Assembly (NCBI GenBank): GCA_036000545.1 | Contig: DASYVD010000004.1 | Span: 1,260-65,259, forward strand | Length of the DNA stretch: 64,000 nucleotides | Origin: Actinomycetota bacterium | GTDB taxonomy: Bacteria > Actinomycetota > UBA4738 > CALAEC01 | Direction: 5' to 3' | Shown: one piece after another, positions 29,726-63,870 of the stretch | How positions within the stretch are numbered: position 1 is the stretch's first letter | How the letters are laid out: every line of letters starts with the position of its first letter | Made by a program: the position numbers and the translations under genes | The notes under the pieces: model-generated | What the model saw: the letters and a program-made list of their open reading frames with translations, nothing else | What the model was told of the DNA's origin: nothing | Database searches by the model: none

Positions 29726-30904
29726 ATGGCGCCCGTGAACCTCCTGGACCTCTTCATCATCTTCCTCGTCATCCTCGCCGCAGTTCTTGGGTACCGTAGA
29801 GGAGCAGTGCTCCAGGTCTTCGCCTACGGGGGCCTGGTGCTCGGCCTGTTCCTGGGGGTCCTCCTGGCTCCCCGGGTCGCATCCCTGGCTCGCGACCCGT
29901 TCACCCAGGCCATGCTGGCCCTGGGGACGCTGATCTTCGTGCCCGCCTTGCTGGACGGGGTCGGCTGGTACGTGGGGGCGCACGCATCCGCGGCCACCCG
30001 TCGGGTCTTCGACCCGGTCGACGCCATGGCCGGAACCGTGGTGGGAGCGGTGGCCATGCTCCTGGCCACGTGGCTCCTGGCCTTCAACCTGATCCAGGGG
30101 CCGTTCCCAGTCCTGGCGCGCCAGATCCGGCACTCTGCGGTGGTTCGGGCGATGGACGCGGTGTTCCCCCGGCCGCCGCCGCTCCTGGCACAAGCTCGCC
30201 GGTTCCTCGAGCGGTCGGGGTTCCCAGAGGTGTTCGCGGGCTTGCCCCCCTTCCCGATCGGGCCGGTGCGCAGCCCGACCAGGGGCGAGTTCAACGAAGC
30301 CATCGACGCCTCCGACCAGAGCACTGCGCGCGTCGCCGGTGAAGCCTGCGACCGCATCAGGGTCGGAAGCGGCTTCGTGGTTGAACCCGGCTACATCGTC
30401 ACCAACGCGCACGTGGTCGCGGGGGTGGACGCGCCGGAGGTCCAGTTCCCCGCCGCCGGTCCCTTCGCTGCCACGACGGTCCTGTTCGACGACGACACGG
30501 ACCTGGCGGTGCTCTACGTCGGGAACTCGCTCCCGCGAGATCTGGATCTGCTTGGGTCGGACCTCGATCGTGGCGGCGGTGGAGCCGTTCTCGGCTACCC
30601 CGGTGGAGCGGAGCTCACGGCATCGACTGCCGGGGTCCGCCGCCGGCTGAACGCCGTGGGCCGCGACATCTACGGCCGGGACACCGTTGAGCGCGAGGTG
30701 TACGAGCTCCAGACCAGGGTTCGCCCGGGGAACTCCGGCGGGCCGTTCGTGACCCCCGAGGGGGATGTGGCCGGCGTGGTGTTCGCCGCGTCGACCACGG
30801 ACAACGACGTTGGGTACGCGCTCACGTCGACGCAGGTGGAACCGGTGATCAGACGGGGACTGGGACGCACGAGCGCGGTCGGCACCGGCCCCTGCATCCG
30901 GTAG
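29726..30904 (+). CDS. MarP-like membrane serine protease (CvpA-type TM N-terminus plus trypsin-like S1 domain)
   Basis: The N-terminus has 4 TM helices and a C-terminal chymotrypsin fold follows (TNAHVV ... D ... GNSGGP). The start is ATG 29726 or GTG 29735. The stop TAG sits at the edge of repeat copy 1. Confidence 0.75.
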   Translation: MAPVNLLDLFIIFLVILAAVLGYRRGAVLQVFAYGGLVLGLFLGVLLAPRVASLARDPFTQAMLALGTLIFVPALLDGVGWYVGAHASAATRRVFDPVDAMAGTVVGAVAMLLATWLLAFNLIQGPFPVLARQIRHSAVVRAMDAVFPRPPPLLAQARRFLERSGFPEVFAGLPPFPIGPVRSPTRGEFNEAIDASDQSTARVAGEACDRIRVGSGFVVEPGYIVTNAHVVAGVDAPEVQFPAAGPFAATTVLFDDDTDLAVLYVGNSLPRDLDLLGSDLDRGGGGAVLGYPGGAELTASTAGVRRRLNAVGRDIYGRDTVEREVYELQTRVRPGNSGGPFVTPEGDVAGVVFAASTTDNDVGYALTSTQVEPVIRRGLGRTSAVGTGPCIR

Positions 30905-30976
30905 GGGGGTCCGGGGGGAGTAGCTCGCCCGGAGCCCTCGAGCGGACGAGTAGCATAGCGAGCGGTCCCCCCGGAG
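30904..30976. repeat. Dispersed GC-rich hairpin repeat, copy 1 (family of 4 in this window)
   Basis: The sequence is GGGGGGTCCGGGGGGAGTAGCTCGCCCGGAG-N22-AGCGAGCGGTCCCCCCGGAG. It lies between the convergent ends of the MarP gene and the GDE gene and is immediately followed by TTGACA. Confidence 0.7.
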
Positions 30977-30989
30977 TTGACAGGGCCCG

Positions 30990-33266
30990 CTATTCCTCCA
31001 TCACCACGCGGACGTCGCCGTCCCGGGAGACCAGCGAGAACCCCGTCATCTCCCCCTCGCGGCGGAAGACCAGGGTCAGCGTGCTCTCCCCCACTTTGAG
31101 GTTCCGGAGCTCCACGTAGTTCAGCCACCGGGGGAGGTGAGGCTTGTTCACCGTGAGCAGGTTCTGGTGGGCCATTGCGGAGAGTCCCAGCATCGCCTGG
31201 AGGAGGAGGAACGGGCTCCCCGCGGCCCATGCCTGTGGCGAGCACGCCACCGGGTACTGAACGGGGCTCGTGGGGGTCCTTCGGGTGAACCCGCAGTACA
31301 GCTCGGGGAGCCGCATGTAGTCGCTGTGCACGGCGGCGTCGAACATCGCCGTCGCCACCCGGTTCGTCGTGTTCACGAAGCCGTAGCGCTTCAGCCCCGC
31401 GGCGATCAGCGCGTTGTCGTGTGGCCACACCGAGCCGTCGTGGTAGCTCATGGGATTGTAGGCCTTGGCCGTCTTGCTCATGGTCCGGATCCCCCACCCC
31501 GAGAACATGTCCGGCTGGAACAGTCGTCGGGCCACCTTCTCCGCGAAGTCGTCGTCCACGGCCCCGCAGTACAGGAGATGGCCGGGGTTCGACACCACGG
31601 TGCGAACCTGCTGCTTCGCGCCGTCCAGCGCGCCGGCGAAGTACTGCTCGTCCTCCATCCAGAACGCCTCGGCGAGACGGTCGCGGATTACGGACGCCTC
31701 CTTACGGAGACGGGCGGCCCGCTCCTCGTCGCCGACCACCGCGTAGACGTCGGCCATTCGGACCTTGGCCATGTACACGTATCCCTGTACCTCGACGAGC
31801 GCGATGGGCGGCTCCGCCAGGTTGCCGTCGGTGTGGACCACGGAGTTCCAGGAGTCCTTCCACCCCTGGTTGGTCAGCCCCCGCTTCGACCGGCTCCGGT
31901 ACTCGACCAACCCATCGCCGTCCTGGTCGCCGTACTCGTCGATCCACGCCAGTGCGGCCTCCGCCGCCGGCATGAGCTCGTCGAGGAAGGCCCGGTCGTT
32001 CGTCCACCGGAAGTACTGCGCCAGCAGGATCAGGAACCACGGCGTGGAGTCGACCGACCCGTAGTAGGGAGTATGCGGGAGGAAATTGGAGCCGGCCAGC
32101 TCGCCTCGGCGGATCTCGTGGAGGATCTTCCCGGGCTCCTCGTCGCGCCAGTGGTCAACCTTGGTTCCCTGGAGCCGCGCGAGCACCTGGAGGCTCTCGC
32201 GAGCCGGACCGGTGTTGAGCATGAGGAGCTGATGCGACGTGATCAGGGTGTCTCGCCCGAACACGGCGACGTACCACGGGATGCCCGCGGCGATCACCCC
32301 GCCGCCGTCCAGCCTTGTGTAGAGCGCCCGGAGGTCCCGCAGGCCCCGGGTAAGCAACGAGTTGAAGAGCTCGTTGTCCGTCCGGATCTGGGTGCACTCC
32401 CGCTCCCAGTCCTCGTAGGACCGGCGAAGCTCGTGCACCACGCTGTCGAAGTCGTGGGCGGGGAGCTCCTCCTCGCCGACCTTCGGCTCCACGGTGATGG
32501 CCACCACCTTGGTCTCGTGGGCCTTCAGGTCGAGTCCGAAATCCGCCTCGACGAGGTCGCCGCGGACTTCGAGTCTCGCCGGGTCCATGGCGAACTCGAT
32601 CCGGCTCACCCTCCGCACGCCGTCCTCTCCGAGATACGCGAACTCGACCGTTCGTCCCTCCGCGCGAGGCGGATCGTGGTGCCCGCGCGTGGGCCGAGTG
32701 AGACCCCGAACCTCGAAGATGTCGTGGAAGTCCGCTCCGAACGACAGCTGGATGTCCAGCCGGACCGGGAAGGCGTTGTAGTTCTTCACGCGGATCCGCT
32801 CGTACACGCGGCCGCCGACGGCCCGGAGGCGTCGGATGTTGAGGGTCTGCTGGGGGACGACGAGCTGTTGGTCCTCGTCGTAGAGGGCGGGGTTCGTGAG
32901 ATCCACGAACGACATGTAGGCGCGCTCCGCGGACGAGGAGAGCAGGATCGGATCTCGTCCGGAGATCCGCAGGCGCAGGTGCGACAGGAACCGCGTGTCC
33001 CGGTAGTACATCCCGAGACCGAACCCAGCTCGGTCGTCGAGGTTTCCCTCGGTATCGGAGTAGACGAAGGTCTCACCTTCCTTGACCGCCAGGACCTTGC
33101 TGGGAAGCTCGGCCACGACGACCGGGGCCTGGGCGTGCAACACACGCCCCGCTGCATCGAGGGAGGCTTCGAGGTCTTCCTGCCGGCCGGGCACCGGGCG
33201 ATCGCTCGGGGGTGGCTGGCGGTCGTCGGGAGGTCGGGGAAGAGCGGACGGGTGTTCGTCGCTCAT
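30990..33266 (-). CDS. Amylo-alpha-1,6-glucosidase family (glycogen-debranching-enzyme-like N-terminal and C-terminal domains) protein
   Basis: It is 758 aa with the GDE_C-like six-hairpin glycosidase region WYVAVFGRDTLITS...GLVEYRS....GLTNQGWKDSWNSV. Confidence 0.8.
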   Translation of the reverse strand: MSDEHPSALPRPPDDRQPPPSDRPVPGRQEDLEASLDAAGRVLHAQAPVVVAELPSKVLAVKEGETFVYSDTEGNLDDRAGFGLGMYYRDTRFLSHLRLRISGRDPILLSSSAERAYMSFVDLTNPALYDEDQQLVVPQQTLNIRRLRAVGGRVYERIRVKNYNAFPVRLDIQLSFGADFHDIFEVRGLTRPTRGHHDPPRAEGRTVEFAYLGEDGVRRVSRIEFAMDPARLEVRGDLVEADFGLDLKAHETKVVAITVEPKVGEEELPAHDFDSVVHELRRSYEDWERECTQIRTDNELFNSLLTRGLRDLRALYTRLDGGGVIAAGIPWYVAVFGRDTLITSHQLLMLNTGPARESLQVLARLQGTKVDHWRDEEPGKILHEIRRGELAGSNFLPHTPYYGSVDSTPWFLILLAQYFRWTNDRAFLDELMPAAEAALAWIDEYGDQDGDGLVEYRSRSKRGLTNQGWKDSWNSVVHTDGNLAEPPIALVEVQGYVYMAKVRMADVYAVVGDEERAARLRKEASVIRDRLAEAFWMEDEQYFAGALDGAKQQVRTVVSNPGHLLYCGAVDDDFAEKVARRLFQPDMFSGWGIRTMSKTAKAYNPMSYHDGSVWPHDNALIAAGLKRYGFVNTTNRVATAMFDAAVHSDYMRLPELYCGFTRRTPTSPVQYPVACSPQAWAAGSPFLLLQAMLGLSAMAHQNLLTVNKPHLPRWLNYVELRNLKVGESTLTLVFRREGEMTGFSLVSRDGDVRVVMEE

Positions 33267-33448
33267 TGGGGCGGCAGTCTAGGTGGGACTTCTCACCTCC
33301 TCAACCTCTCAGACCATCTTCCAGTGTCGGCGGGTTACAGGAGCAACCTGAGGAACACACTCACCGCGAGCGGCCGGGCTCGGAGGCCGAGCGCGCCCAG
33401 CCCCCTTCCCTCGCCCACGCGCTCAACCCCCTCGCCCGGCCAACCCAC

Positions 33449-34315
33449 CTAGAGCCTCCTCAGCTCAGCTCCTGGAGCAATGCGGGGACGGAGGACGCGC
33501 CAGCCGGGTCCGAGCTCTGGGACGACGGCGCTGTCGGTCTCGAACGCGAGGAGCGAAGGCCCCGCTCCCGCCACGCATACCGCCAGGCCGGCGTCGCGGA
33601 GGTCCTGAAAGAGAGCACGAGAGGCCGGGGCCAGGGCCAGCCGGCGGGCCTGGTGGAGCCGGTCTTCGAGGGCCTCGAGAAGGAGCTCGGGCCGGGCGGT
33701 CAGCGCGACCACGGTGAGAGCCGCCCGGCCCACGTTGTGGGCGGCGGCGGAGAGGGGGACCTCTCTCGGAAGGATCCGCCGGGCGTCGGCTGTCGGGACG
33801 CGCTCCTCCTCCGGAACGAGCAGGACAGGGCGGAGCGACGCGTGCGGCTCCAGGGGCTCGGCTCGCCATCCCGTTGCCGATAGATAGGCGACCACCAGCC
33901 CTCCGAGGATGCAGGCGGCCACGTTGTCCGGGTGGCCTTCGATGTCCACAGCGACCTGGAGCAGCCCGGGGGGGTCGAGACGGGACCCGATCAGCTCGTT
34001 GGCGAGCAGGAGACCGGCGACCGTCGCCGACGACGACGACCCGAGACCCCGTTCGAGCGGGATGGCGTTTCGGCACCGGAGTCTGAACGGGGGCAGGGAC
34101 CCGCCGGCCTCGCGCGCGAGGTAGGCCATGGACCGGAACACGAGGTTGGAGGCGTCCTCGGGGAGCTCACCGGCTCCCTCACCCTCCACGACCACGGCCG
34201 GCCGGGCCTCCGTGTCGACTTCCACCTCGTTCTCGACGTCCACGGCGAGGGCCAGGGCGTCAAATCCCGGGCCGAGGTTGGCCACGGTGGCCGGAGTCCG
34301 GGCGAGGAGGCGCAT
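33449..34315 (-). CDS. thrB: Homoserine kinase
   Basis: It belongs to the GHMP kinase family (TVANLGPGFDALALAV, PLERGLGSSSSATVAG). The ATG overlaps the thrC stop (ATGA). The start was trimmed from the ORF 33449..34429. Confidence 0.85.
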   Translation of the reverse strand: MRLLARTPATVANLGPGFDALALAVDVENEVEVDTEARPAVVVEGEGAGELPEDASNLVFRSMAYLAREAGGSLPPFRLRCRNAIPLERGLGSSSSATVAGLLLANELIGSRLDPPGLLQVAVDIEGHPDNVAACILGGLVVAYLSATGWRAEPLEPHASLRPVLLVPEEERVPTADARRILPREVPLSAAAHNVGRAALTVVALTARPELLLEALEDRLHQARRLALAPASRALFQDLRDAGLAVCVAGAGPSLLAFETDSAVVPELGPGWRVLRPRIAPGAELRRL

Positions 34316-36682: not shown

Positions 36683-36725
36683 CGATGAGGTTCCGGTCCG
36701 CGGGTGGGGGGTAACCTCGTCCCGC

Positions 36726-37319
36726 TCACGGGAGCCACCGGGCCATCACGATCTCGTCGTCGTAGCCGTAGGACTTCTTCGACTGACCGATGAGGCGGCC
36801 CTCTTCCTCGAACCCGAATTTCCGGTACAGCGCCCGGGCCACCTCGTTGTGCGGGTAGACGGTCAGGCTCACCTTCTCCACCCCCGACCACTCGGCCCAT
36901 CGAAGAGCCTCGGCGAGAAGAGCCGAACCAACACCTCGCCCGCGCCACTCCCGAGAGACCGACATCCCCAACTCGGCCACGTGCCGGAGGTTGGCGTGCT
37001 TCTCCCGCGTGATCCCCAGGTCGCCAACGACTCGCCCATCCGCCACGGCCACGATGCGTGCGCCGGTGGATGTCCACGACCTACGGAACTGCCGGCGCAG
37101 CTGGCGCACGGTCCAGGGAACTTCCTCCGTCCGGATGAACCGCCGCTCCGCGGCGACGGCCTTCACCAGGTCGAGGATCTGCCGGGCGTCACTGGGGCGG
37201 GCGGGCCGCACTTCCACACCCGGCGGCGGGAAAGGCTCCGGGAGCGACGGACCGGTCGGCCGGCCGCGTGAGACCGGCGGAGCCCCTTCATCTCCGCGAT
37301 TTTCCCCTGGAACCCCCAT
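36726..37319 (-). CDS. GNAT family N-acetyltransferase (occupies the slot where lysA lies in other actinobacteria)
   Basis: The acetyl-CoA motif is REWRGRGVGSALL...ALYRKFGFEEEG. The ATG immediately follows the argS stop (TAGATG). Confidence 0.6.
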   Translation of the reverse strand: MGVPGENRGDEGAPPVSRGRPTGPSLPEPFPPPGVEVRPARPSDARQILDLVKAVAAERRFIRTEEVPWTVRQLRRQFRRSWTSTGARIVAVADGRVVGDLGITREKHANLRHVAELGMSVSREWRGRGVGSALLAEALRWAEWSGVEKVSLTVYPHNEVARALYRKFGFEEEGRLIGQSKKSYGYDDEIVMARWLP

Positions 37320-39002: not shown

Positions 39003-39017
39003 GGGCTCAGGGCGAGC

Positions 39018-50442: not shown

Positions 50443-50730
50443 TTGCGGGCATACGTTCTGATCCAGACAGAGCCGGAGACGGAACGCGTCACCGATCAGC
50501 TCCGAGCCGTCCCGGGAGTGCTCTTCGCTGACGATGTCACCGGAGCCTACGACGCCGTCGCCGTGGCCCAGTCCAGCTCGATGCGCCACCTGACGGAGGT
50601 CGTCCTGCCGGAGATCCGCAACGTCCCCGGCGTCACGCGGGCGCTTCCCGCCCCCGTGCTCGACGGCTCGGAGCGGGATCGGGAGACCGAGCCGTCCGGA
50701 AAGGCCTCCGCCACTGTTCGGGCCGCCTGA
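50443..50730 (+). CDS. Standalone Lrp/AsnC ligand-binding (RAM) domain protein
   Basis: It is about 95 aa (LRAYVLIQTEPETERVTDQLRAVPGVLFADDVTGAYDAVAVAQ...). The TTG start has a GGGAGGAGG RBS 6 nt upstream. An alternative GTG at 50419 overlaps the permease stop. Confidence 0.55.
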   Translation: MRAYVLIQTEPETERVTDQLRAVPGVLFADDVTGAYDAVAVAQSSSMRHLTEVVLPEIRNVPGVTRALPAPVLDGSERDRETEPSGKASATVRAA

Positions 50731-51009
50731 GCGGATAATCCGGATGTGGGCTGGTGGGAGGAGCCACGGAACGACTGGATGCACGGGTCCTGGTACCCCG
50801 TTCGGGCTCGCGGCCAACGGCACCGTGATGCTCGCCTTTCACGCCGGGGACGGATCCTCTGGTCCGTGGTCTTCGTTACTTGGGGCTGCCGTCGTCGCCC
50901 CCATAGCGCTCGCGATGCTCGACGGGATCTGACCGGCTCGCGCCGACCCCAAAAAGAGTGACAAAAACGCGCGAAGGCTTGCGCCCCGGCGGCCCGTTGA
51001 TATAGAAAT

Positions 51010-51053
51010 GCTTCGGAACCGCTGGAGTCTTCGGACTCCGGCGGTTCCGTTTT
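51010..51053. terminator. Bidirectional intrinsic terminator-like hairpin
   Basis: CGGAACCGCTGGAGTC-TTCG-GACTCCGGCGGTTCCG forms a 15-16 bp stem followed by TTTTCC. It lies about 110 nt beyond the sensor kinase stop. Confidence 0.5.
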
Positions 51054-51163
51054 CCGGGTCGTTCGCCCTCCCGACCGACCTCCTAGCCGGAGGATGGACG
51101 TCCTCGTCCGGTGCCGGGGGTCCGCTGGCCGGACTCGCCAATGCCTTCTCGCTCCCGGGCCAG

Positions 51164-52378
51164 CTACCCCCCCGGACCCCCCTCCGGTACCCACACCGCA
51201 AAGCGTGACCCCTCGGCCAGGCTGCTCCGGACCTCGATCCGCCCTCCAAGGGACTCAACGATCTTCTTGGCGAGGGCGAGCCCCAGTCCCGAGCCGTCGC
51301 CCGACCGCGACGCATCCGCCTGCCAGAACGGCTCGAACACGTGCGCCAGGGCGTCCGGGGCGATCCCCTCGCCGGTGTCCTCCACGGTCACCTCGACCCC
51401 GCTCCGGTCCCAGCTCGCCTCGATCCGCACGGTGCCGTCGGCGGGGGTGTGGCGGATCGCGTTGTGCAGGAGGTTCTGAAGGACGCGAAGGAGCCGAGGC
51501 GAGCACAGGGCGCCCGCCGCCGGGGCCACCGACGTCTCCAGAACCAGGCCCTTCTCCCGAGCTTGGCCCTGGAGATCCGCGACCGCCGACCGCACCAGTT
51601 GGCCGAGGGGGATCCGGTCCGTCTCGCGCTCGATGGCCCCCGCGTCGATCTGAGCCAGCTCGAAGAGGTCGTCCACGAGGTGGGACAGCGAGCCCACGGC
51701 CCTCCGCATCTCCCGCGCGTACCGCCGGAGGCTGGGCGGGTCGCCCACCACACCCTCGTCGATGGCCTCGACCATGGCCCTGAGGCCGGCCAGCGGGGTA
51801 CGCAGGTCGTGCGACACAGCGGTGATGAGATCGCGGCGGCGAGCCTCCAGATCGCGCTCCCGGGAGATCGACGCTTGGAGTCGCTCGGCCATCTCGTCGA
51901 GCGTCCGGCCCAGGTCACCGAGCTCGGAATCGGCGACAATCGGCCCGACCCGCGCCGTGAGGTCTCCCCGGGCCAGCTCCTCGGCCGTGCCGGTGACCCG
52001 GCGCAGCGCGGCAACCGTGGTGCGCGTGAGCGCCAGCGCGGCGCCGATTCCGACTACAGCGGAGGACGCCAGGACCACGGCGACCAGCGAGGCGTCGTGC
52101 CGGCTCACGAACATCAGCGCGGCGACCGCTCCGAGCATCGAGAGGGCCACGACGACGCCGACGACGGCCACGGCCAGGAACCGATGGCGGAGGGAGGAGC
52201 CGGCGAGCCACCGGGACCCCACCGCCGTCAAGAGCACGAGAACCACGGCGGAGGCCGCGAGCGTCAGCACCAGCTGGGCGACGTCCGAGGTCGGCATTCC
52301 CACGAGGGCGCCGCCGGCCAGCGTGGCGAGCGCACCCACAGCCGCGGTGACCCCCACCAGGGCGAGCCCGCTCCTCAT
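51164..52378 (-). CDS. Sensor histidine kinase (2 TM, HAMP, HisKA, HATPase)
   Basis: The H-box is AVSHDLRTPLAGL. The N/G boxes are LLHNAIRHT and DTGEGI...GSGLGLAL. The ATG overlaps the response regulator stop (ATGA). Confidence 0.8.
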   Translation of the reverse strand: MRSGLALVGVTAAVGALATLAGGALVGMPTSDVAQLVLTLAASAVVLVLLTAVGSRWLAGSSLRHRFLAVAVVGVVVALSMLGAVAALMFVSRHDASLVAVVLASSAVVGIGAALALTRTTVAALRRVTGTAEELARGDLTARVGPIVADSELGDLGRTLDEMAERLQASISRERDLEARRRDLITAVSHDLRTPLAGLRAMVEAIDEGVVGDPPSLRRYAREMRRAVGSLSHLVDDLFELAQIDAGAIERETDRIPLGQLVRSAVADLQGQAREKGLVLETSVAPAAGALCSPRLLRVLQNLLHNAIRHTPADGTVRIEASWDRSGVEVTVEDTGEGIAPDALAHVFEPFWQADASRSGDGSGLGLALAKKIVESLGGRIEVRSSLAEGSRFAVWVPEGGPGG

Positions 52379-53073
52379 GGCTCGAAGCGGTAGCCGACGC
52401 CCCATATGGTCATCAGGTGGCGGGGGCGGGATGGGTCGGCCTCGATCTTCTCCCGGATCCGGCGGATGTGGACCGTGACCGTCGAAGAGTCACCCTCCCA
52501 TGCGAAGTCCCACACCTGCTCGAGCAACTGGAGCCTCTTGAACACCACGCCGGGGTTGGACGCCAGCAGGTGAAGGAGGTCGAACTCCTTTCGGGTGAGG
52601 TGCACGGCTTCCCCCCGAGCCCGAACGTCCCTGCGTTCCACGTCGATCTCGAGATCCTCGAACCGCAACGGGGGAGTCGGGCCCTCCGCGGCCGGGCTCG
52701 CGGTGCGACGAAGCACCGCCCGCACCCGGGCCACGACCTCCCGCGGGGAGAACGGTTTGGTGACGTAGTCGTCTGCGCCGAGCTCAAGGCCGACGATGCG
52801 ATCGGTTTCCTCGCCCTTAGCCGTCAGCATGATGACGGCCGGAAACGGTGACGGGATCGCGTCACGCATCCGACGGAACACCTCCAGCCCGTCGATGCGC
52901 GGAAGCATCAGGTCGAGGATGACCACGTCCGGCCGGGCCCGCTCGACCGCGGAGAGGGCCCGCTCCCCGTCCTCGGCCGCCTCCACGTCGAAGCCCTCCC
53001 GGGCCAGGTAGCGCGACAGCACCTCGCGCACGATCGGCTCGTCGTCGACGACCAGCACCCTTGCTCCGGTCAC
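52375..53073 (-). CDS. OmpR-family response regulator
   Basis: The receiver is RVLVVDDEPIVREVL...DVVILDLMLPRIDGLEV and a winged-helix output is LTRKEFDLLHLLASNPGVVF...MTIWGVGYRF. The start was trimmed to a GTG from the ORF 52375..53523. Confidence 0.8.
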   Translation of the reverse strand: MTGARVLVVDDEPIVREVLSRYLAREGFDVEAAEDGERALSAVERARPDVVILDLMLPRIDGLEVFRRMRDAIPSPFPAVIMLTAKGEETDRIVGLELGADDYVTKPFSPREVVARVRAVLRRTASPAAEGPTPPLRFEDLEIDVERRDVRARGEAVHLTRKEFDLLHLLASNPGVVFKRLQLLEQVWDFAWEGDSSTVTVHIRRIREKIEADPSRPRHLMTIWGVGYRFEP

Positions 53074-53217: not shown

Positions 53218-53655
53218 ATGATCCGCAAGACCGTGGTGCTGGCGGTGGCTCTCGCCGCCGTCGCGCTGTCGGCGGGGATCGCTCGGGCGGGTGTGGGCGG
53301 CCCGGCGTTCTACGTCGACGGCGTCATCTATCGCACGGTCGGCACCCCGACCGATCTCTCGGGCACCGGAGCCCCGGAGCACAGCTTCGACACCATCTAC
53401 CAGTTCTTCGGCCTCCAGCTGAACGTCGCTACCGCAGCGCCCGGAGACCCCGGCTACAACGGAGGGCGGTGGATGGTGCACGGCCTGTCGTTCTCCGACT
53501 ACGCCGCCGCGGTCGCCGCCCACGACGCCAACGGCAGCGGCAACTTCGACAGTGACGAGGAGGTGGCCGCGGCACTAGCGTCCGGAGCGGCCTCCGACAT
53601 CGGGATCGTCAAGATGTTCGAGTGCCCGGTGATCCCGCTGCCACGAAGCGGCTGA
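53218..53655 (+). CDS. Small secreted hypothetical protein
   Basis: The signal peptide is MIRKTVVLAVALAAVALSAGIARA. The protein is 145 aa with no recognisable domain. Confidence 0.5.
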   Translation: MIRKTVVLAVALAAVALSAGIARAGVGGPAFYVDGVIYRTVGTPTDLSGTGAPEHSFDTIYQFFGLQLNVATAAPGDPGYNGGRWMVHGLSFSDYAAAVAAHDANGSGNFDSDEEVAAALASGAASDIGIVKMFECPVIPLPRSG

Positions 53656-54563: not shown

Positions 54564-54635
54564 GGGGGGTCCGGGGAGAGTAGCTCGCCCGGAGGGGGCG
54601 ATGCGTGAAGTGGGACAGCGAGCGGTCCCCCGGAG
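54564..54635. repeat. Dispersed GC-rich hairpin repeat, copy 2
   Basis: The sequence is GGGGGGTCCGGGGAGAGTAGCTCGCCCGGAG-N22-AGCGAGCGGTCCCCCGGAG. It lies in the divergent gap between the lplA-like gene and the pyruvyl transferase gene. Confidence 0.7.
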
Positions 54636-54650
54636 TGATAAGGGAGCCGG

Positions 54651-56225
54651 ATGCGGGAACGTCGGGGAAGCCGAGCATCGGAACGGTCGTCCAGGCGGTC
54701 CTCGCGCGCCGGGGCGTCCCGGACGAAGCCGGCCCGCAGAGCCACGAAGCCTCGGCGTGAGCCCTCCGCGCGGGAAGCGCCCCGCTCCGCCCGGGCGGCC
54801 GGGCCCCGTATCGGGCTGTGGGGGACCTTCGACCTTGAGAACTACGAAGACATGCTGTTCCCCCGCATCCTCGAGGAGGAGCTGGGCCGGCGGATTCCCG
54901 ACGCCCACATCCGGGTCTTCGCTCCGGTCGGCTACACGGGACTGAACCGCTTCGAGGAGCGGGAGCCGGCGGAGCCTCTGGGCCCGTGGAGCCCGGAGCG
55001 CGTGACCGAGCTGGCCGGCGATCTCGACTGCGTGGTAATCGGCCCCGGCGAGATCATCCACGGCCGCGACGAGCTCCTGAGTCCCCACTACGGCCTGACG
55101 CCGGCCGAGATGCGGCGACGGGCCCCGAGCCGCTTCTTCCTGGGCGGCCTCGGTCCCGACCTCGAGCGCGAGTGCCCGGTCGTGTGGTCCGCCGTGGGGA
55201 TCCCCTTCGACTTCCGGGCGAGAGAGGCGGCTCGGGCCCGGGAGTCTCTGGCGAGCCGGCCGATCGTCTCGGTCCGCGATGAAGTTTCGCGGCGTCGCCT
55301 CCGCAAGGCCGGCGTGGATCGGGAAGTCGAGGTGGTGCCGGATCCCGCGTTCCTCGGTTCGCGGCTGTTCCCCCCGCCTCTCCTCGAGAAGCGCCTTGCT
55401 CAGCTCCGGGCTACCGGCGTCTACCCCGAGCAGCCTCCCCTGGTCGTGCAGGGCAACGCGGCGAGCATCTTCCAGGTCCAGGGGCTCGCGTCCGCACTGG
55501 AACGCCTCCGCGAGGAACGGGAGATCGCGAGGGTCGTCCTCGTGGAGACGGGCCCTTGCCACGGAGACGGGGAGTTCGCTCGGGCGCTGGAAGAGGCGAT
55601 GCCGGGCACGGTCAGACTCCCGTCGGCCGGCCTGGCCGACGTGACCGCTGCGATCGCCGCGTCCGCCGGGTTCATCGGAACCTCGCTGCACGGGAACATC
55701 ACCGCGCTCACCTTCGACCGGCCCCACCTCGTTCTGGCCTGGGGCGGGGAAACGAAGCTCGAGGGATTCGCCGAGGCCATCGACAATCTCGACTGCTTGG
55801 TGGAGCGGGCAGAGGACGTTCCAGGGGCGTTCGAGAAGGTCGCCGCCCTGGGCTCCCGGACCGACATCGTGGCCGATCTCGCCCGGCGGGTGGACGCCCA
55901 TCTCGACCGGGTTGCCGAGGTCGCGGTGACAGCCACAGCCCGCCGCGAGCGTCCCCCGGCCGCGGCCTCTCTCGCCGAGCAACTCGAGCTGCTGCGGCGG
56001 GCATACGAGCGGCGAGGACGGTTGCTGGTGGCCCAGCGGTGGACCCTGGCCGACCGGTTCGCCGACCTCGACGCGGAGATCGCCGCGTTGAGGGAGGAGA
56101 TCGCCCGGCTCGAGCGGGAGGTGGGCGGAAGGGCCGGGGAGCTCGAGCGCCTCCTCAATACCAAGACGTTCCGGTACACCAGCGCCCTCAGGCGCCTGTA
56201 CGGGAGCCTCCGCCGAGGCCGCTGA
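54651..56225 (+). CDS. Polysaccharide pyruvyl transferase family protein (CsaB-like) with a C-terminal coiled coil; start uncertain
   Basis: The PS_pyruv_trans core starts IGLWGTFDLENYEDMLFPRILEEEL. There is no canonical start just upstream, so either ATG 54651 adds an about 50-aa Arg/Ser-rich N-terminus or the start is non-canonical near 54810. Confidence 0.6.
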   Translation: MRERRGSRASERSSRRSSRAGASRTKPARRATKPRREPSAREAPRSARAAGPRIGLWGTFDLENYEDMLFPRILEEELGRRIPDAHIRVFAPVGYTGLNRFEEREPAEPLGPWSPERVTELAGDLDCVVIGPGEIIHGRDELLSPHYGLTPAEMRRRAPSRFFLGGLGPDLERECPVVWSAVGIPFDFRAREAARARESLASRPIVSVRDEVSRRRLRKAGVDREVEVVPDPAFLGSRLFPPPLLEKRLAQLRATGVYPEQPPLVVQGNAASIFQVQGLASALERLREEREIARVVLVETGPCHGDGEFARALEEAMPGTVRLPSAGLADVTAAIAASAGFIGTSLHGNITALTFDRPHLVLAWGGETKLEGFAEAIDNLDCLVERAEDVPGAFEKVAALGSRTDIVADLARRVDAHLDRVAEVAVTATARRERPPAAASLAEQLELLRRAYERRGRLLVAQRWTLADRFADLDAEIAALREEIARLEREVGGRAGELERLLNTKTFRYTSALRRLYGSLRRGR

Positions 56226-57595
56226 TGACGGTCCTGTCCCTTCCCCCGGTCGACCGTCCTCTGCTGACGGTGGTCATGGTGACCTACGGGGGATGGGACT
56301 GGCCCCGGCGGGCCCTCGAGTCGCTGCGCGCGCACACCGATCCGATCTACGAGGTCGTCGTGGTCGACAACGCGTCACCCGACGAGACGGCGCAGCGGCT
56401 CCGGGACGAGATCCGGGGGGCCAGGCTGATCTTCAACGACCGGAATCTGGGGTTCGCCGTTGCCGCCAACCAGGGCGCCGGCGAAGCGACCGGCAGATAC
56501 CTGTGCTTCCTCAACCCGGACGCGCTGGTCCAGCCGGGGTGGTTTCCCCCGCTGGTCGAGACGCTGGAGACCTTCGCCCAGGCCGGCGCGGTGGTGCCGA
56601 GATTCCTGGCCCCCGACGGGACCGTGGAGGAGGCGGGATCCCTGGTGGACCGGGAAGCCCGGACGCTCGCGTACGGGCGGGGCGGGAGCGCGGACGACTC
56701 TCAGTACCGGTTCCGCCGGGTGATCGACTACGGCTCGGCCGCCTGCCTGGTCTTGCCGGCGTGGACGTTCCGGCGGGCCGGCGGGTTCGACCCAGTGTTC
56801 CAGCCCGCCTACTGCGAGGATGTGGACCTCTTGCTCACGCTCCGCGCGATGGGCCTCTCCACGGTGTACGACCCGCGCTCCACGGTCGTCCACGTGGGGG
56901 CCGGGTCGAGCGACGACGTGGTCCGAGGAACCCTGATCGACCGCAATCGCCCCATTCTCCTGGCTCGCTGGGCGCAGGCTCTAGCGGACCGCCCAACCCT
57001 CCTCGAGCTTGACGACCACCCGCAGCGGGTGGTCGCGGTTCGGGACGCGGGGATCACCGATCGCCTGCTGATCACCGTCGACGGCGTGGGCCGGGAACGA
57101 CTTGAGTCGCTGGCGGGTCACTTGGCCGAAGCCCGTCCCGACCTCAGGGTCACGCTTCTGCGCGTGGCCCGGCCGGACGGAAACCCTCCGGGCCCGGGGG
57201 ACGAGGAGCTCTTGGCGAAGGGGATCGAAGAGGCGGCTCCCGCCGACCCAGCCGGGTGGCTAGACGCGCGGCGCCTTCACTACACGGCGGCTATCCTCGA
57301 CGGGCCTCGGGTGACCGCTCGGCTCGATCCGAGCCTCCGCCGCAGCCACCCGGAGATCCTGCGGGCCTACATCGCCGCCGACGGCGTGGACGGCGACCCT
57401 GCCCATCCTCGAGGCGCCTCCGGGTGGCGATCGTCCGAAGTCTCCGCGATGCGCGAAGCGAGCGCGGTCCTCTGTCGAAGCGAGGCTGGACGGCGCACGG
57501 CGCGTATCGTTGCCCCGGACGTGCCGACGTTCATGCTCGAAGAGCTGGGGGGAGGCGACGAGCTCCTTTCACTACTGGGGATCGCTCCGCGCTAG
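56225..57595 (+). CDS. Family-2 glycosyltransferase with an about 200-aa uncharacterised C-terminal domain
   Basis: The GT-A fold reads LLTVVMVTYGGWDWPRRALESL...VVVVDNASPDET...DxD-like NPDA. The ATG overlaps the pyruvyl transferase stop (TGATG). Confidence 0.75.
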   Translation: MTVLSLPPVDRPLLTVVMVTYGGWDWPRRALESLRAHTDPIYEVVVVDNASPDETAQRLRDEIRGARLIFNDRNLGFAVAANQGAGEATGRYLCFLNPDALVQPGWFPPLVETLETFAQAGAVVPRFLAPDGTVEEAGSLVDREARTLAYGRGGSADDSQYRFRRVIDYGSAACLVLPAWTFRRAGGFDPVFQPAYCEDVDLLLTLRAMGLSTVYDPRSTVVHVGAGSSDDVVRGTLIDRNRPILLARWAQALADRPTLLELDDHPQRVVAVRDAGITDRLLITVDGVGRERLESLAGHLAEARPDLRVTLLRVARPDGNPPGPGDEELLAKGIEEAAPADPAGWLDARRLHYTAAILDGPRVTARLDPSLRRSHPEILRAYIAADGVDGDPAHPRGASGWRSSEVSAMREASAVLCRSEAGRRTARIVAPDVPTFMLEELGGGDELLSLLGIAPR

Positions 57596-57797
57596 TCAGT
57601 CCGCTCGAGGGCCCTCTCGCTCCGAGCCCGCCCTCTCCAAGAACCCCAAGCCCAGCAGCTTCGTCACCAGCGCCACGGCGCGGACAGGGAAGAGCATCGT
57701 ACCGGAGGACGCTCAGGTACCCGCCCCTACGGACGGTGTAGGCAAGACGGAGGGGGCGGAGCACCCCCTCCGTCACTCGATCAATGGTCGATCGGCC

Positions 57798-60065: not shown

Positions 60066-60174
60066 CAGGTCATCCCTCCTCAGCGGGCTTACGCTGTCCA
60101 CTTACGTCATACGTTGACGGCGTAAGCCTACGGGTGTACGATGTAAGTGTCAACCCCTAGAAGGTGAAATCTTG

Positions 60175-60897
60175 ATGGACAAGGTGCAGACGGAGGACCA
60201 AAGCCCCACCTCCACCGGCCCAAGGTCGCTTGAACAGCACGGAAAACGCCGCCGAGAGCCGCTGACGAGGGAGCGCATCATCCGGACCGCCCTTCGGATC
60301 ATGGACGAGGAGGGGCTCGACGCGGTCACCATGCGACACATCGGTCGCCAGCTCGGCGTGGAGGCCATGTCGCTGTACAACCACGTGCGGGACAAGGAGG
60401 AGATCCTCGACGGTATCTGCGAGGAGGTGCTGGCCGAGTTTCGAGTCCCGCAGGTGGAGGGCTGGACCGAGGCGGCCCGACTCGGTGCTCACGAGTACCG
60501 GCGCCTGCTGCTCGCCCACCCCAACGTGATCACGCTCATGACCGAACGCAAGGGAGCCTTCACCAACGCCGAATCCCTGCGGGCCTACGAGTTCGCGCTG
60601 GGCCTTTTCCGGTCCGCCGGCCTGTCCGAAGCCGACTCGGTCAAGGCCTTCCACACGTTCGGCGGCTACATCCTCGGCTTCGTGACGATGGAGCTGGGCC
60701 TGATGATCGGCGGGCCGGAAGACGAGGCCCACGTGCAGGCCCACGAGGCGATGGCTCGACTGGTCGCGTCGGCGGACCTCCCTCGGCTCCGCGAGGCGCT
60801 CCCTTACATCATCGACTGCGACGTCGAGGAGCAGTTCGAGTTCGGACTCGATCTCCTGATCCAAGGACTTCGGGCCCGGACCCCCCCGACCGGCTAG
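60175..60897 (+). CDS. TetR/AcrR family transcriptional regulator (divergent from the MMPL gene)
   Basis: The HTH is LTRERIIRTALRIMDEEGLDAVTMRHIGRQLGVEAMSLYNHV. Confidence 0.8.
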   Translation: MDKVQTEDQSPTSTGPRSLEQHGKRRREPLTRERIIRTALRIMDEEGLDAVTMRHIGRQLGVEAMSLYNHVRDKEEILDGICEEVLAEFRVPQVEGWTEAARLGAHEYRRLLLAHPNVITLMTERKGAFTNAESLRAYEFALGLFRSAGLSEADSVKAFHTFGGYILGFVTMELGLMIGGPEDEAHVQAHEAMARLVASADLPRLREALPYIIDCDVEEQFEFGLDLLIQGLRARTPPTG

Positions 60898-61015
60898 CTC
60901 AGAGCCGAAACCTGGACTTTTCCGGCCTCGTCGGGCTGCAGGAAGGCTCATTCTCCGAGGGCAACTCCGGCTAGGCTCTTGAGAGCCCGAGCAAGACCCC
61001 CGAGGGAGGATCGTC

Positions 61016-61888
61016 ATGGCGAAGGTCGCGTTTCTCGGCCTCGGGCAGATGGGAAGCCCGATGGCGCGCCGGTTGGTGGCGTCCGGACATGACGTCACCG
61101 TGTGGAACCGCACTCCTGAAAAGGCCGAGCCGCTCGTGGCGGAGGGAGCGCGTCAGGGAGCGACTCTCGCGGACGCCGGACAGTCGGCGGAGGCCGCGGT
61201 CACCATGCTCGCCGACCCGGATGCCCTCGAGACCGTCCTGTTCGGACCGGACGGCCTCGCTGCGACCCTCCAGGAAGGAGCCACCCTCATCGACATGTCC
61301 ACCGTCGGCCCGGAGACGGTTCGCCGGGTTGCGGAGCGCCTTCCTCGAGGAGTCACCATGCTCGACGCGCCCGTCCTGGGGACGGTGCCGCACGCCGAGG
61401 AAGGCCACCTGAAGATCTTCGTCGGTGGTCCCGAGGACGTGTTTGAGCGGTGGCGTCCTCTCCTCGATGTGCTGGGGACCCCGACCCACCTCGGACCTGT
61501 TGGCGGCGGGGCTTCGATGAAATTGGTGGTCAACTCGACGCTCGGGGCGGTGATGTCTGGGATCGGCGAAGCGCTGGCGCTCGCGGACGCACTCGGGCTC
61601 GACGAGGAAATGACGCTGAACGTGCTGGCCGACTCGGTCGTCGGGACCGGCGTGACCAGGGCCCGCCCGAGCATCGAGAGCGGCACGTTCCCGCCGCGGT
61701 TCAAGCTCTCGCTGGCCCGCAAGGACCTCGGCTTGGTGACCGACGCAGCGGGACGAGCCGGCCTGGAACTGCAGGTGGCGTCCGCCGCGCACGACTGGTT
61801 TCAGTCGGCAGTCGACCCAGGGGCTCGGGGAGCTCGACTACACCACGGTCGTGGCCCACATCCGGGGCCGGGGGGTCCGGGGGGGTAG
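61016..61888 (+). CDS. NAD(P)-dependent 3-hydroxyisobutyrate dehydrogenase-family oxidoreductase; 3' end probably frameshifted
   Basis: The Rossmann fold VAFLGLGQMGSPMARRL and the catalytic KLVVNS are present. The annotated tail ...ARLHHGRGPHPGPGGPGG* is atypical. The +1 frame after GARG gives the family-typical ELDYTTVVAHIRG... and runs into repeat copy 3. Confidence 0.7.
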   Translation: MAKVAFLGLGQMGSPMARRLVASGHDVTVWNRTPEKAEPLVAEGARQGATLADAGQSAEAAVTMLADPDALETVLFGPDGLAATLQEGATLIDMSTVGPETVRRVAERLPRGVTMLDAPVLGTVPHAEEGHLKIFVGGPEDVFERWRPLLDVLGTPTHLGPVGGGASMKLVVNSTLGAVMSGIGEALALADALGLDEEMTLNVLADSVVGTGVTRARPSIESGTFPPRFKLSLARKDLGLVTDAAGRAGLELQVASAAHDWFQSAVDPGARGARLHHGRGPHPGPGGPGG

Positions 61889-61940
61889 CTCGCCCCGTAC
61901 GCGGGGGCGAGGGGACGAGAAAGCGAGCGAACCCTCCGGA
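61868..61940. repeat. Dispersed GC-rich hairpin repeat, copy 3 (diverged)
   Basis: The sequence is GGGGGGTCCGGGGGGGTAGCTCGCCCC...AAGCGAGCGAACCCTCCGGA. Its internal TAG is the stop codon of the dehydrogenase ORF. Confidence 0.6.
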
Positions 61941-62068
61941 TAGAAAGGAAGCGCGGCGCTCCTAGCGGCGCCGGGTAGCATATCCCCGCCGTTCGCGGCG
62001 CTAAGGGAGGGCGTTCGAGCAGGAACCGGCTCTCCTGGCCTTGAATACGAAACGGGAGGGATACGCAC

Positions 62069-62836
62069 GTGAACGTGATCGTGCTGTCGAAGTTCATACC
62101 GAACCCCACGGGGACCCCCGAGCTCGGCGACGACTTCCTGGTGAAGCGGGAGGGAGTGGAGGGCGGGCTCGATCCGGGAGACGAGTACGCGGTGGAAGCC
62201 GCCCTGCAGATCGCGGAGAAGACCGGGGGCGAGGTCACCGTGGTGTCGATGGGGCCAGAGCCGGCCCTGGCCGCCGTTCGAAAGGCGCTCTCGCTCGGGT
62301 GCGCCAAGGGCGTGCTGGTGACCGACGACGGCCTCCGCGGATCCGACGTCCTGGTCACCGCCACCGTCCTGGCCAAGGCCATCGAGCGAGAAGGATTCGA
62401 CCTCCTGCTCGCCGGCGTGGAGTCGACCGACGGTTCCACGGGCACCCTCCCCATGGCCCTGGCCGAGCTCCTCGGAGTCCCGAGCCTCACGTTCGCCCGG
62501 AAGGTCGATGTGGCCGACGGGAGCGTGACCATCGAGCGGCAGACCGAGGCGGGCTACGACGTCGTGCAGTGCCCGCTTCCCGCTCTGGTCACCGTGACCG
62601 CCGGGGCCACGGAACCGCGCTATCCAACCCTCAAGGGAATCATGCAAGCGAAGCAGAAGCCTGTTGACCAGCGCTCACTGTCCGACCTGGGCTTGTCCGC
62701 CGACGACGCGAAGCCCACGCAACGAGTCACGAGGATCGAGGACGCACCCGAGCGGGGCGCGGGAGAGATCGTGGAGAACGAGAGCCGGGCCGCCGACCGC
62801 ATCGCCCAGTTCCTTCAAGAGGCCAAGGTGCTCTGA
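62069..62836 (+). CDS. etfB: Electron transfer flavoprotein subunit beta
   Basis: It is 255 aa (MNVIVLSKFIPNPTG...) and belongs to the EtfB family. Confidence 0.9.
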   Translation: MNVIVLSKFIPNPTGTPELGDDFLVKREGVEGGLDPGDEYAVEAALQIAEKTGGEVTVVSMGPEPALAAVRKALSLGCAKGVLVTDDGLRGSDVLVTATVLAKAIEREGFDLLLAGVESTDGSTGTLPMALAELLGVPSLTFARKVDVADGSVTIERQTEAGYDVVQCPLPALVTVTAGATEPRYPTLKGIMQAKQKPVDQRSLSDLGLSADDAKPTQRVTRIEDAPERGAGEIVENESRAADRIAQFLQEAKVL

Positions 62837-62837
62837 C

Positions 62838-63812
62838 ATGGCCAAGGTGTGGGTCTATGCGGAGCTCTCTCCCGACGGAAGCGTCCACGCCACCGCTCTC
62901 GAGCTGCTCACCAAGGCCCGGTCGCTGGGCGACACCGTCGAGGCGGTCGTCCTTGGGCCCGGGGCGACCGGCGCGGCCGGCCCTCTCGGCGAGCACGGTG
63001 CGCAGCGCGTGTTCGCCAGCGACGAAGAGGTGTTTGCCAACCACCTGGCCCAGCCGGCCACGCAGGCGCTCCATCAGCTCGTCCAGGAGCATCAGCCCAA
63101 CCTCATCCTGTTCGCCTACAGCTACAACTCACGCGACGTGGCTGGGCGGCTCCAGGCGAAGACGCGCTCCGCTCTCATGAGCAACGTAACGGACGTTCTC
63201 GGGCCCGAGGAGGCGCAGACTCAGATCTTCGGAGGAACCAAGATCGTGACCTGTTCCCTCGAGGGCCCGGACCCCAAGTTGCTGGTGGTCCGGCCCAAGG
63301 CCTTCGAGCCCGAGCCCTCGGGGGGGAGCGCCGAGGTCGTTCCGGTCCAGGTAGACATCCCCGACGAGCTCAAGAAGGCGGCGGTCGGAGATCGGCACGA
63401 GGAGCAGGCCGCCGGACCCAAGCTCGAGGAGGCCCGCGTCGTCGTGGCCGGAGGCCGCGGCCTCCAGGAGTCCGGCAACTTCGAGATCCTCCGGGAGCTC
63501 GCCGAGGCCATCGGGAACACGGCGGTAGGCGCCACGCGCGCCGTCGTCGACGCCGGCTGGGTCCCCTACAGCATGCAGATCGGACAGACGGGAACCACGG
63601 TGAAGCCCGAGGTCTACATCGCCATCGGGATCAGCGGAGCCACCCAGCATCTCGTGGGAATGAAGGAAGCCAAGCGGATCGTCGCCATCAACAAGGATGC
63701 CGACGCCCCCATCTTCAAGCTGGCCGATCTGGGTGTGGTGGGAGACGCGCTAAAGATCGTGCCCCAGCTGGTGGAACAGATCCAGTCGATGAGGGGGGGC
63801 CGGGGAGAGTAG
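62838..63812 (+). CDS. etfA: Electron transfer flavoprotein subunit alpha
   Basis: It is 324 aa from MAKVWVYAEL and has the FAD-binding C-terminus ...PEVYIAIGISGATQHLVGMK. The stop TAG is supplied by repeat copy 4. Confidence 0.9.
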   Translation: MAKVWVYAELSPDGSVHATALELLTKARSLGDTVEAVVLGPGATGAAGPLGEHGAQRVFASDEEVFANHLAQPATQALHQLVQEHQPNLILFAYSYNSRDVAGRLQAKTRSALMSNVTDVLGPEEAQTQIFGGTKIVTCSLEGPDPKLLVVRPKAFEPEPSGGSAEVVPVQVDIPDELKKAAVGDRHEEQAAGPKLEEARVVVAGGRGLQESGNFEILRELAEAIGNTAVGATRAVVDAGWVPYSMQIGQTGTTVKPEVYIAIGISGATQHLVGMKEAKRIVAINKDADAPIFKLADLGVVGDALKIVPQLVEQIQSMRGGRGE

Positions 63813-63870
63813 CTCGCCCGGAGAAGTCGAAGCGTTGAGCGGGAGTGCAAGCGGTGCCCGGGCGAGAGAA
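63793..63870. repeat. Dispersed GC-rich hairpin repeat, copy 4
   Basis: The sequence is GGGGGGGCCGGGGAGAGTAGCTCGCCCGGAG-N-AGCGGTGCCCGGGCGAG. It overlaps the last 6 codons of etfA. Confidence 0.65.

Follow-up and report, generated by a model that had tools for sequence, protein, structure and literature searches.

What is a short, strongly palindromic sequence that recurs at the ends of functionally unrelated genes and lends some of them its own stop codon? The question is raised by a 64,000-nucleotide stretch of DNA (hereafter, the window) from the Actinomycetota bacterium assembly GCA_036000545.1 (contig DASYVD010000004.1, positions 1,260 to 65,259; lineage UBA4738, CALAEC01), in which an earlier note, made from the letters of the sequence alone, had pointed out four copies of a GC-rich hairpin repeat said to be inserted precisely at gene 3′ ends. 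We consider it likely, with a probability of roughly 0.7, that these copies belong to a family of palindromic interspersed repeats that is non-autonomous and specific to the lineage, with units of about 76 nt, of the kind represented by repetitive extragenic palindromic (REP) sequences and miniature inverted-repeat transposable elements (MITEs). The kind is already known; the sequence family and its host lineage are new.

Direct reading of the window bears out the four copies, all of them on the plus strand: c1 (30904–30981), c2 (54564–54640), c3 (61871–61946) and c4 (63793–63870). A 30-nt core, searched with up to 3 mismatches, has 3 matches in the window, c1 among them, compared with none across 100 dinucleotide-preserving shuffles; c3 escapes this search through a 1-nt deletion and was recovered via the invariant GTAGCTCGCCC. 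A covariance model, for which 17 copies were used and the long hairpin was prescribed by hand as the structure, scores c1 at 84 bits, c2 at 81, c3 at 61 and c4 at 63 (E 1e-12 to 1e-18), and its E-values reach 1e-20 among all copies described below. The fold that RNAalifold returned for 10 copies was rejected as a model structure, being slipped and dominated by a local palindrome of the left arm instead of the long hairpin. The covariance model finds five copies in the window with E below 1e-9, and the fifth, c5 (51102–51189, minus strand; 51 bits, E 1.5e-10), had been missed in the count of four. It belongs to a subfamily, B, whose inner stem GCTGGCC/GGCCAGC is a compensated version of GCTCGC/GCGAGC. 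Two probable degenerate copies, both on weak evidence, had likewise been overlooked: a decayed one at 57563–57654 (minus strand; 15 bits in the window and 20 bits in a second assembly of the species), located 3′ of a minus-strand MMPL gene and with a centre resembling that of c1, and a diverged one at about 22310–22376 (minus strand; 12.7 bits), 4 nt after the TAA stop of the minus-strand open reading frame (ORF) 22381–23247, which has GGGGGTCCGGGGGG, CAG replacing GTA and a compensated inner stem GCAGCC/GGCTGC. The copies c1 to c5 are a real repeat family, dispersed through gene spacers and into the last codons of genes.

The evidence that this family is, or formerly was, mobile comes from the comparison of filled and empty sites. 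Syntenic loci, denoted here by numbers prefixed with L, were collected via homologues of EtfA, the alpha subunit of the electron transfer flavoprotein (ETF): L156 (93% EtfA identity), L157 and L158 (87%) and L160 (84%), together with L162 from the same species as the window (99.6% DNA identity). At the end of etfA, the G-run and GTAG of c4 stand in place of the native terminus, and the window protein ends ...SMRGGRGE, compared with ...KKGGG or ...KKSSG in its relatives. In L156, L158 and L160 the site is empty, with a native ...SKK(S/G)(S/G)G-stop and the stop of a convergent OsmC gene 1–30 nt further on, and in L157 the left arm only is present (GGGGTCCGGGGGGAGTAGCTCGCC) and the protein ends ...KKGVRGE. 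In the window the OsmC stop lies at 63891–63893, and the right arm of c4 is degraded (GCAAGCGGTGCCCGGGCG). At the next junction upstream, c3 is a clean block of 76 nt lying between GGGGCCG and GGAAGCGCGG in a MAFFT alignment with L156, within the last codons of a gene for a 3-hydroxyisobutyrate dehydrogenase (HIBADH)-like enzyme. This site is empty in L156, L157, L158 and L160, where HIBADH ends ...GREARLS-stop; c3 cuts off this native C-terminus, and the orphaned codons and stop, which align with the same four loci, persist untranslated on the 3′ side of c3 as the remnant ggaagcgcggcgctccTAG (61947–61965, plus strand). The site of c2, in the leader of a polysaccharide pyruvyl transferase gene (ATG at 54651), is empty in L156, L157 and L158 (...gtgcTATATggggccgaagc-ttAGGGAGccggATG); c2 has a conserved −10-like gtgcTATATgg on its 5′ side and the native Shine-Dalgarno sequence aagggag on its 3′ side, with AAGGG on both flanks. 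Finally, a copy in the leader of a DUF309 gene is present in L156 and L162 and absent from L157 and L158. As the relatives have empty sites, c2, c3 and c4 are insertions, and the element is mobile or formerly mobile, being gained, lost and decayed at the scale of closely related species. The insertion polymorphism among syntenic loci agrees with the suggestion of a dispersed MITE- or REP-like element, and the empty sites prove the proposed remodelling of C-termini for etfA and the HIBADH-like gene.

Two further features of these loci were observed in passing. In L157 (8314–9187) the HIBADH-like gene is called as two pieces of 99 and 197 aa, and its end, GGAAAGAAGGCGCGG, is similar to the tail junction of c3, perhaps as the footprint left by a lost copy. 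Separately, a gene of about 1.5 kb with DUF7059 and methyltransferase domains (L156:3356–4861) occurs also in L157, L158 and L160 and adjoins the MMPL gene in three of these four; the window (57596–57797) and L162 are without it and have the decayed copy 57563–57654 at that junction instead, so an element-associated deletion may be involved.

Copies are also found well beyond the window, in L162 (one further copy), in two other metagenome-assembled genomes (MAGs) and in soil-type metagenome contigs. An exact 24-nt pattern, scanned over species-representative genomes, occurs at 6 loci, five in the MAG DASYUI01 (Actinomycetota bacterium SMAG_U4591) and one in the MAG JBOGWB01. Copies are located at L001–L004, L006 and L156 in DASYUI01 and at L005 in JBOGWB01; L006, which is syntenic with 27.5–35.5 kb of the window and 86% identical to it, contains the c1 orthologue. 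The covariance model adds copies at L001:2510–2595 and L156:15837–15923, and the contig of L160 ends inside a copy (11478–11541), as is typical of repeats. In metagenomes, the gapped pattern GTAGCTCGCCC N20-34 GCGAGCG occurs at 120 loci, of which about 8 are real relatives and the rest chance, as are all 29 of the 29 matches on viral contigs. These distant relatives (L051, L056, L073, L097, L102/L120, L117 and possibly L078) have an outer stem that is changed yet complementary, for example TCGAGGG/CCCTCGA against TCCGGGGGG/CCCCCCGGA. Moreover, L002 and c4, which are not syntenic, have centres that are nearly the same; this speaks for a common master sequence from which both were copied. A BLAST search of plasmids with a consensus-like copy gave nothing relevant. 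In L102 (5388–5568) and L120 (745–925), the copy lies exactly between a sub-threshold PyrR attenuator (41 bits versus a gathering threshold of 54) and the start of pyrR, and thus was inserted into a regulated leader; identity of these copies with the PyrR site itself was rejected, Rfam placing the attenuator just before the element and not on it.

The limits of the unit, set by the c3 insertion and by a tandem junction in L003, define about 76 nt from a G-run to the purine tail (G/T)AGAAA. A run of 5–7 G is followed by a left arm of about 20 nt, TCCGGGGGGA-GTA-GCTCGC, bearing the GTAG, then by a variable centre of 22–29 nt, and then by the complementary right arm, GCGAGC-GG-TCCCCCCGGA, and the short tail; in c1 these parts are the G-run at 30904–30909, the left arm with GTAG at 30910–30934, the centre at 30935–30956, the right arm at 30957–30976 and the tail TTGAC. 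The arms thus form an imperfect terminal inverted repeat of 19–20 nt on a short non-coding unit. As RNA, c1, c2 and c3 have minimum free energies of −41, −32 and −43 kcal/mol and form an interrupted hairpin with an outer stem TCCGGGGGG(A)/(T)CCCCCCGGA and an inner stem GCTCGC/GCGAGC, and the consensus-like L003 copy has a folding z of −5.4. The complementarity of the arms that had been described for each copy therefore holds for c1, c2 and c3 and fails for c4, which, with its degraded 3′ arm, folds no better than shuffled sequence. Both stems contain compensated changes, seven pairs being doubly changed (the inner stem of subfamily B, for example, has GC for CG), and a GUA/GG internal loop is conserved among copies. 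Of 20 aligned copies, 19 have the GTAG immediately before the inner stem or overlapping it, a count that includes copies found by the model and not by a GTAG-containing pattern (c5, L156); the exception, L001:2510, has GCAG. All copies are singletons, in neither inverted dimers, clusters like bacterial interspersed mosaic elements (BIMEs) nor tandem arrays. The sole tandem arrangement observed is a solo right arm, GGGCGGTCCCCCCGGAGAGAA, directly before the complete copy in L003 (36–60).

The GTAG at the foot of the inner stem brings up a stricter reading, according to which the unit would be a REP, or a doublet of REPs, in the full sense: GTAG and hairpin would be the cleavage site of a single-copy REP-associated tyrosine transposase (RAYT; TnpA_REP, a Y1 HUH enzyme) encoded elsewhere, the element would spread via single-stranded DNA, and the AGGG in the flanks would mark the tetranucleotide that is targeted or cleaved, and would not be a duplication. 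We regard this as the most serious of the alternatives, albeit an unlikely one. It is favoured by the GTAG itself, found in nearly all copies, by two inverted conserved arms around a variable spacer, by flanks compatible with HUH-type insertion beside a fixed tetranucleotide, and by the extragenic location with a TAG lent as stop, which is typical of REPs (Di Nocera et al., 2013, PMC3733652; definition in PMC6006769). GTAG-tagged REPs lie mainly between unidirectional and convergent ORFs, their termini often give a TAG stop to flanking ORFs, and some families have long loops (PMC3733652). Hence the statement that nothing like this consensus is known stands for the sequence, since Rfam and plasmid searches came back empty, and falls for the phenomenon, since GTAG palindromes that lend a TAG are published (PMC3733652). 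Operationally, however, a REP is a sequence of 20–40 bp with a GTAG or GTGG tetranucleotide 0–2 nt 5′ of the stem, and a basal stem of 7–20 paired nt that closes a 2–5 nt loop or leads to a second stem via a 1–3 nt bulge (PMC6006769). Against this, the present unit has 76 nt, its inner stem of 6–8 bp encloses 22–29 nt after the GTAG, and the GTAG resides in an internal loop within an outer stem of 9–10 bp. The tetranucleotide is confined to the left arm, the right arm having CC at the place equivalent to TAC, and the inverted dimers and clusters are missing. Moreover, no Y1 transposase appeared in about 200 kb of clade DNA, admittedly a weak test. The 2013 survey of GTAG repeats covers eight phyla, including Proteobacteria, Cyanobacteria, Chloroflexi and the Planctomycetes-Verrucomicrobia-Chlamydiae (PVC) group, Actinobacteria not being among them (PMC3733652), and we found no paper linking REP, RAYT and Actinobacteria.

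With respect to where the copies go, almost every one is preceded by NGGG, mostly AGGG, and followed by AGGG or AGGA, and the empty sites hold one such motif (AAGGGAG, GGGAGG, AAGGG or TGGG). The (A)GGG on both sides resembles a Shine-Dalgarno sequence, and the pattern fits either a target duplication of 3–5 bp or HUH-type insertion beside a fixed tetranucleotide, the G-run blurring the boundary. Shine-Dalgarno-like targets would explain both the copies that cut into last codons and those that end approximately 7–25 nt before a start codon, namely c2, the DUF309 copy, L001 (purQ-like), L004/L005 (E1-beta-like), L051, L056, L073 and L102 (pyrR). Orientation is equally regular, in every copy with a readable gene context. 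Between genes of the same direction, 6 of 6 independent copies (c3, L001a, L004/5, L051, L056 and L073) are sense; between convergent genes the GTAG side points to the stop of whichever gene runs in the direction of the element; and between divergent genes (c2, L002, DUF309, L102) the tail points to the start of the gene that runs in that direction.

The relation to stop codons, which had drawn attention to the repeat, depends on the reading frame. Flanking genes were assigned by Pfam. In the plus-strand etfA (about 62838–63812), preceded by etfB (62069–62836, plus strand), the stop is indeed inside the element (TAG at 63810–63812 within GAGTAGCTCG), and the stop of a MarP-like gene (CvpA and trypsin-like protease; 29663–30904, plus strand) does adjoin the G-run of c1 (TAG at 30902–30904), which lies between it and the convergent stop (30990–30992) of a glycogen-debranching (GDE)-like gene (30990–33266, minus strand). 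A histidine kinase gene (51164–52405, minus strand), for its part, terminates at the TAG of the c5 GTAG (51166–51164). The G-run is translated into Gly/Arg-rich tails, as had been proposed (EtfA ...RGGRGE, kinase ...EGGPGG). For the HIBADH-like gene (61016–61888, plus strand) the claim of a stop in the GTAG holds for the window ORF only: that ORF ends at 61886–61888, at the GTAG of c3 (61885–61888), but at about position 61816 the window reads GACCCAGG where L162, L163 and L164, all of the same species, and the relative L156 read GACCAGG. The extra C (within 61809–61822) frameshifts the last 25 or so codons; in the native frame of the sibling assemblies the gene reads through all of c3 and stops at a second TAG inside the element (61941–61943), with the tail ...HIRGRGVRGGSSPRTRGRGDEKASEPSG. 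The stop at 61888 thus depends on the frameshift, either a rare variant or an assembly error. An antisense pseudo-ORF said to stop at 54583 is no gene, c2 being located in the leader of the pyruvyl transferase gene (54651–56225, plus strand) between divergent genes, some 10–15 nt before the ATG. Indeed, c2, the DUF309 copy, L002 and L102 all lie in 5′ leaders just before start codons, contrary to the idea of precise insertion at gene 3′ ends.

Across the copies, upstream ORFs reach their stop ahead of the G-run in c1, L006 and L001b; elsewhere they end at the TAG within the GTAG (c4, c5, L051 and window c3), at +26 (L005, TGA), at +55 (L004 and the native frame of c3, TAG) or at +73, overlapping the next ATG (L001a), and on average 2.05 of the three sense frames are closed per copy, as against 0.25 of the three antisense frames. 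Given that upstream ORFs end at the first in-frame stop, at varied positions, stop donation is a matter of reading frame plus selection and not of precise targeting of stop codons. Insertion took place at differing loci in differing relatives, at short G-rich, Shine-Dalgarno-like (A)GGG motifs that occur before genes and sometimes within last codons. The copies that survive in one-directional contexts are sense to their transcript, most likely because of a survival filter: the purine-rich sense strand would close frames fast, through the GTAG with its TAG and further stops in the centre (TGA) and the tail (TAG or TGA), the antisense strand being almost stop-free. The AGAAA of the tail, joined to the GGG of the target, could form AGAAAGG(G/A), a ribosome-binding-like site for the next gene. 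The transcribed unit is predicted to fold (−32 to −43 kcal/mol as RNA) and, by analogy with REPs, would most likely act as an mRNA 3′-end or processing barrier. The putative mover would be a RAYT/IS200-like Y1 enzyme or a DDE transposase acting in trans, the flanks being compatible with both.

The comparison of orthologous copies reveals a sharp contrast within the unit. Between c1 and its L006 orthologue, arm plus tail are identical at 56 of 56 positions and the centre at 11 of 22, with 66–71% identity at third-codon positions of the flanking genes; the pair of DUF309 copies displays the same pattern. The arms are therefore either constrained or homogenised, and the centre is free to drift, roughly at the neutral pace. 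That the centre had been inverted between orthologous copies was rejected by eye, the centres not being reverse complements. Taken by itself, such conservation might suggest a non-mobile cis-acting RNA or protein-binding motif (an RNase site, a regulator site or a translation-coupling module) kept by selection at gene junctions: orthologous arms are 100% identical across species at synonymous divergence of about 30%, the GUA/GG loop is conserved, both stems show compensated changes, and the copies are strictly sense and close to stops and starts. Nonetheless, we consider this improbable, because the neighbouring genes have no function in common (protease, ETF, dehydrogenases, kinase, purQ, pdhB-like, pyrR, gabT-like), close relatives have no element, or fragments only, at the same junctions, native C-termini are cut, c4 has lost its right arm, and Rfam offers no match. 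A bolder hypothesis, and to us a doubtful one, combines mobility with function: the element could be a domesticated gene-junction module that targets Shine-Dalgarno-like AGGG and is kept by selection, its arms forming an RNA hairpin whose GUA/GG loop is recognised by a host factor, and a single piece of DNA would supply upstream stops, a signal for mRNA processing or stability and a rebuilt downstream ribosome-binding site. Were this the case, a bacterial mini-element that targets ribosome-binding sites would represent a new insertion specificity.

A still less likely proposal is that the copies are sequence-conserved intrinsic terminators, possibly with promoters. Strong GC-rich hairpins directly after several stop codons and the TTGACA after c1 speak for it, and the earlier note had allowed for promoter or terminator activity, which finds no support here. 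No copy precedes a T-tract, no U-tract hairpin or sigma-70-like hexamer pair lies in or beside any of them, and no terminator-like site overlaps one; the tails are purine-rich. Furthermore, c2, the DUF309 copy and the L102 copy are preceded by a promoter-like −10 or an attenuator and followed by the start of an intact gene; a terminator at such a place would silence that gene, which argues against strong termination. As for the TAGCATA motifs, the one near c3 lies outside the element, about 30 nt past its end, and is conserved (as GGGTAGCATAT, window 61974–61985) upstream of etfB in five genomes, of which L156, L157, L158 and L160 have no element there; it is thus a native motif and not borne by the element, and GGGTAGCATAT probably serves as the −10 region of the etfBA promoter. 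The TAGCATA of c1 belongs to the centre, which drifts fast, and the orthologous copy does not have it. Rfam, run over the window, returned only a tRNA at threshold and no family for the element, the best sub-threshold matches on c1, c3 and c4 being no better than chance (Actino-pnp, for instance, has 16 bits, its threshold being 47.7); a tRNA-like identity, considered for the sake of the GUAGCUC, had neither tRNA nor Rfam support and was discarded. Coincidental similarity, which might be entertained in a genome of about 70% G+C, where runs of G and C pair easily, is already refuted by the shuffle control (3 matches against 0 in 100), the covariance-model E-values down to 1e-20 and the recurrence of a 76-nt unit at non-homologous loci of several genomes.

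Several observations weigh against our preferred reading, a non-autonomous interspersed repeat, and temper the probability that we attach to it. The identity of orthologous arms could reflect real function or gene conversion and not mere tolerance, and a target-site duplication is indistinguishable from a target motif equal to the terminal motif of the element itself. The source species has 6 intact copies in the 74 kb read, and the initial 22 kb of the window contain none. The hairpin has modest covariation support (79.9% pairing against 77.3% in shuffles), because the stems are G/C runs, and G-U pairs are not above A-C mismatches in the aligned copies, so that selection of structure at the RNA rather than the DNA level is not indicated. 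Moreover, tblastn with YafM and IS608 TnpA queries, a weak test, gave no significant RAYT match in the approximately 200 kb of clade DNA. The sole weak match (E about 1), which fell on the region upstream of a 3-hydroxyacyl-CoA dehydrogenase gene in L002, was rejected as a RAYT candidate. No insertion sequence (IS) was seen in the window or the compared loci, a collection-wide search not having been made.

Two side observations concern other parts of the window. At 53233–53328, ARAGORN calls a 96-nt tRNA-Asp where the Rfam tRNA model stays below its gathering threshold; this is probably either a spurious call or an unusual, intron-like tRNA. On the 3′ side of c5, about 550–680 nt (50547–51100) have no Pfam-matched ORF or confident coding signal.

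These findings extend GTAG-tagged palindromic repeats to an uncultured lineage of Actinomycetota, a phylum outside the main survey, and provide unusually clean pairs of filled and empty sites, which show the rewriting of C-termini in EtfA, the HIBADH-like dehydrogenase and the histidine kinase. They also carry a warning for annotation: in database proteins, Gly/Arg-rich tails such as ...GVRGE, as well as tails of some 24 residues, are encoded by the element, and contigs break inside the repeat. Three features we deem worth following up: orientation is strictly sense, the flanks resemble Shine-Dalgarno sequences and the arms are conserved at the species level; the first two together offer a testable hypothesis on how selection or target choice shapes the survival of mini-elements.

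Among known systems, the closest are the GTAG-tagged REPs, such as the REP/BIME sequences of E. coli, the REPs of Pseudomonas and the SMAG repeats of Stenotrophomonas; REPs of this type typically exceed 100 copies per genome and usually flank an associated RAYT gene. With these the element shares the GTAG at the foot of a GC-rich stem, an intergenic location mostly after genes, the TAG that serves as an ORF stop, the presence of some copies within ORF ends, subfamilies with compensated stems and the presumed action as transcribed hairpins. It differs from them in its size of 76 nt rather than 20–40, in the extra outer stem around the GTAG and the long inner loop, in that its copies are singletons and all sense, and in its host phylum. 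Our literature search on REP and RAYT in Actinobacteria, and on MITEs at Shine-Dalgarno sites, found no description of the family.

REPINs, inverted REP doublets that are mobilised by RAYTs (Bertels and Rainey, 2011, PMC3116915), resemble the element in having two conserved inverted arms of about 20 nt, a less conserved spacer, a hairpin of approximately 70–110 nt and long persistence. Unlike theirs, its arms are not two complete GTAG-bearing REPs, the GTAG being in the left arm only. We know of no REPINs characterised by strict sense orientation and Shine-Dalgarno-like flanks.

The small bacterial MITEs, such as Correia/NEMIS of Neisseria, ERIC/IRU of enterobacteria and RUP/BOX of the pneumococcus, are co-transcribed with flanking genes and have orientation-dependent effects on mRNA. 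The element shares with them terminal inverted repeats, a non-coding nature, presence/absence polymorphism (here of c2, c3, c4 and the DUF309 copy, at five syntenic loci) and the ability to alter gene ends; it is smaller than most, has (A)GGG on both sides rather than a proven target duplication, and has no known parent IS.

Within Actinobacteria, the mycobacterial interspersed repetitive units (MIRUs) of Mycobacterium tuberculosis, reportedly described by Supply et al. in 1997 as units of 46–101 bp between operon cistrons, with frames overlapping the upstream stop and the downstream start, are likewise small units at gene junctions. Yet MIRUs form tandem arrays (variable number tandem repeats, VNTR) and not long hairpins, whereas the element is without arrays, and no similarity in sequence between the two is known to us. 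In sum, the element is not to be filed as a canonical REP: it is a mini-repeat of the REP/MITE type that represents a new sequence family.

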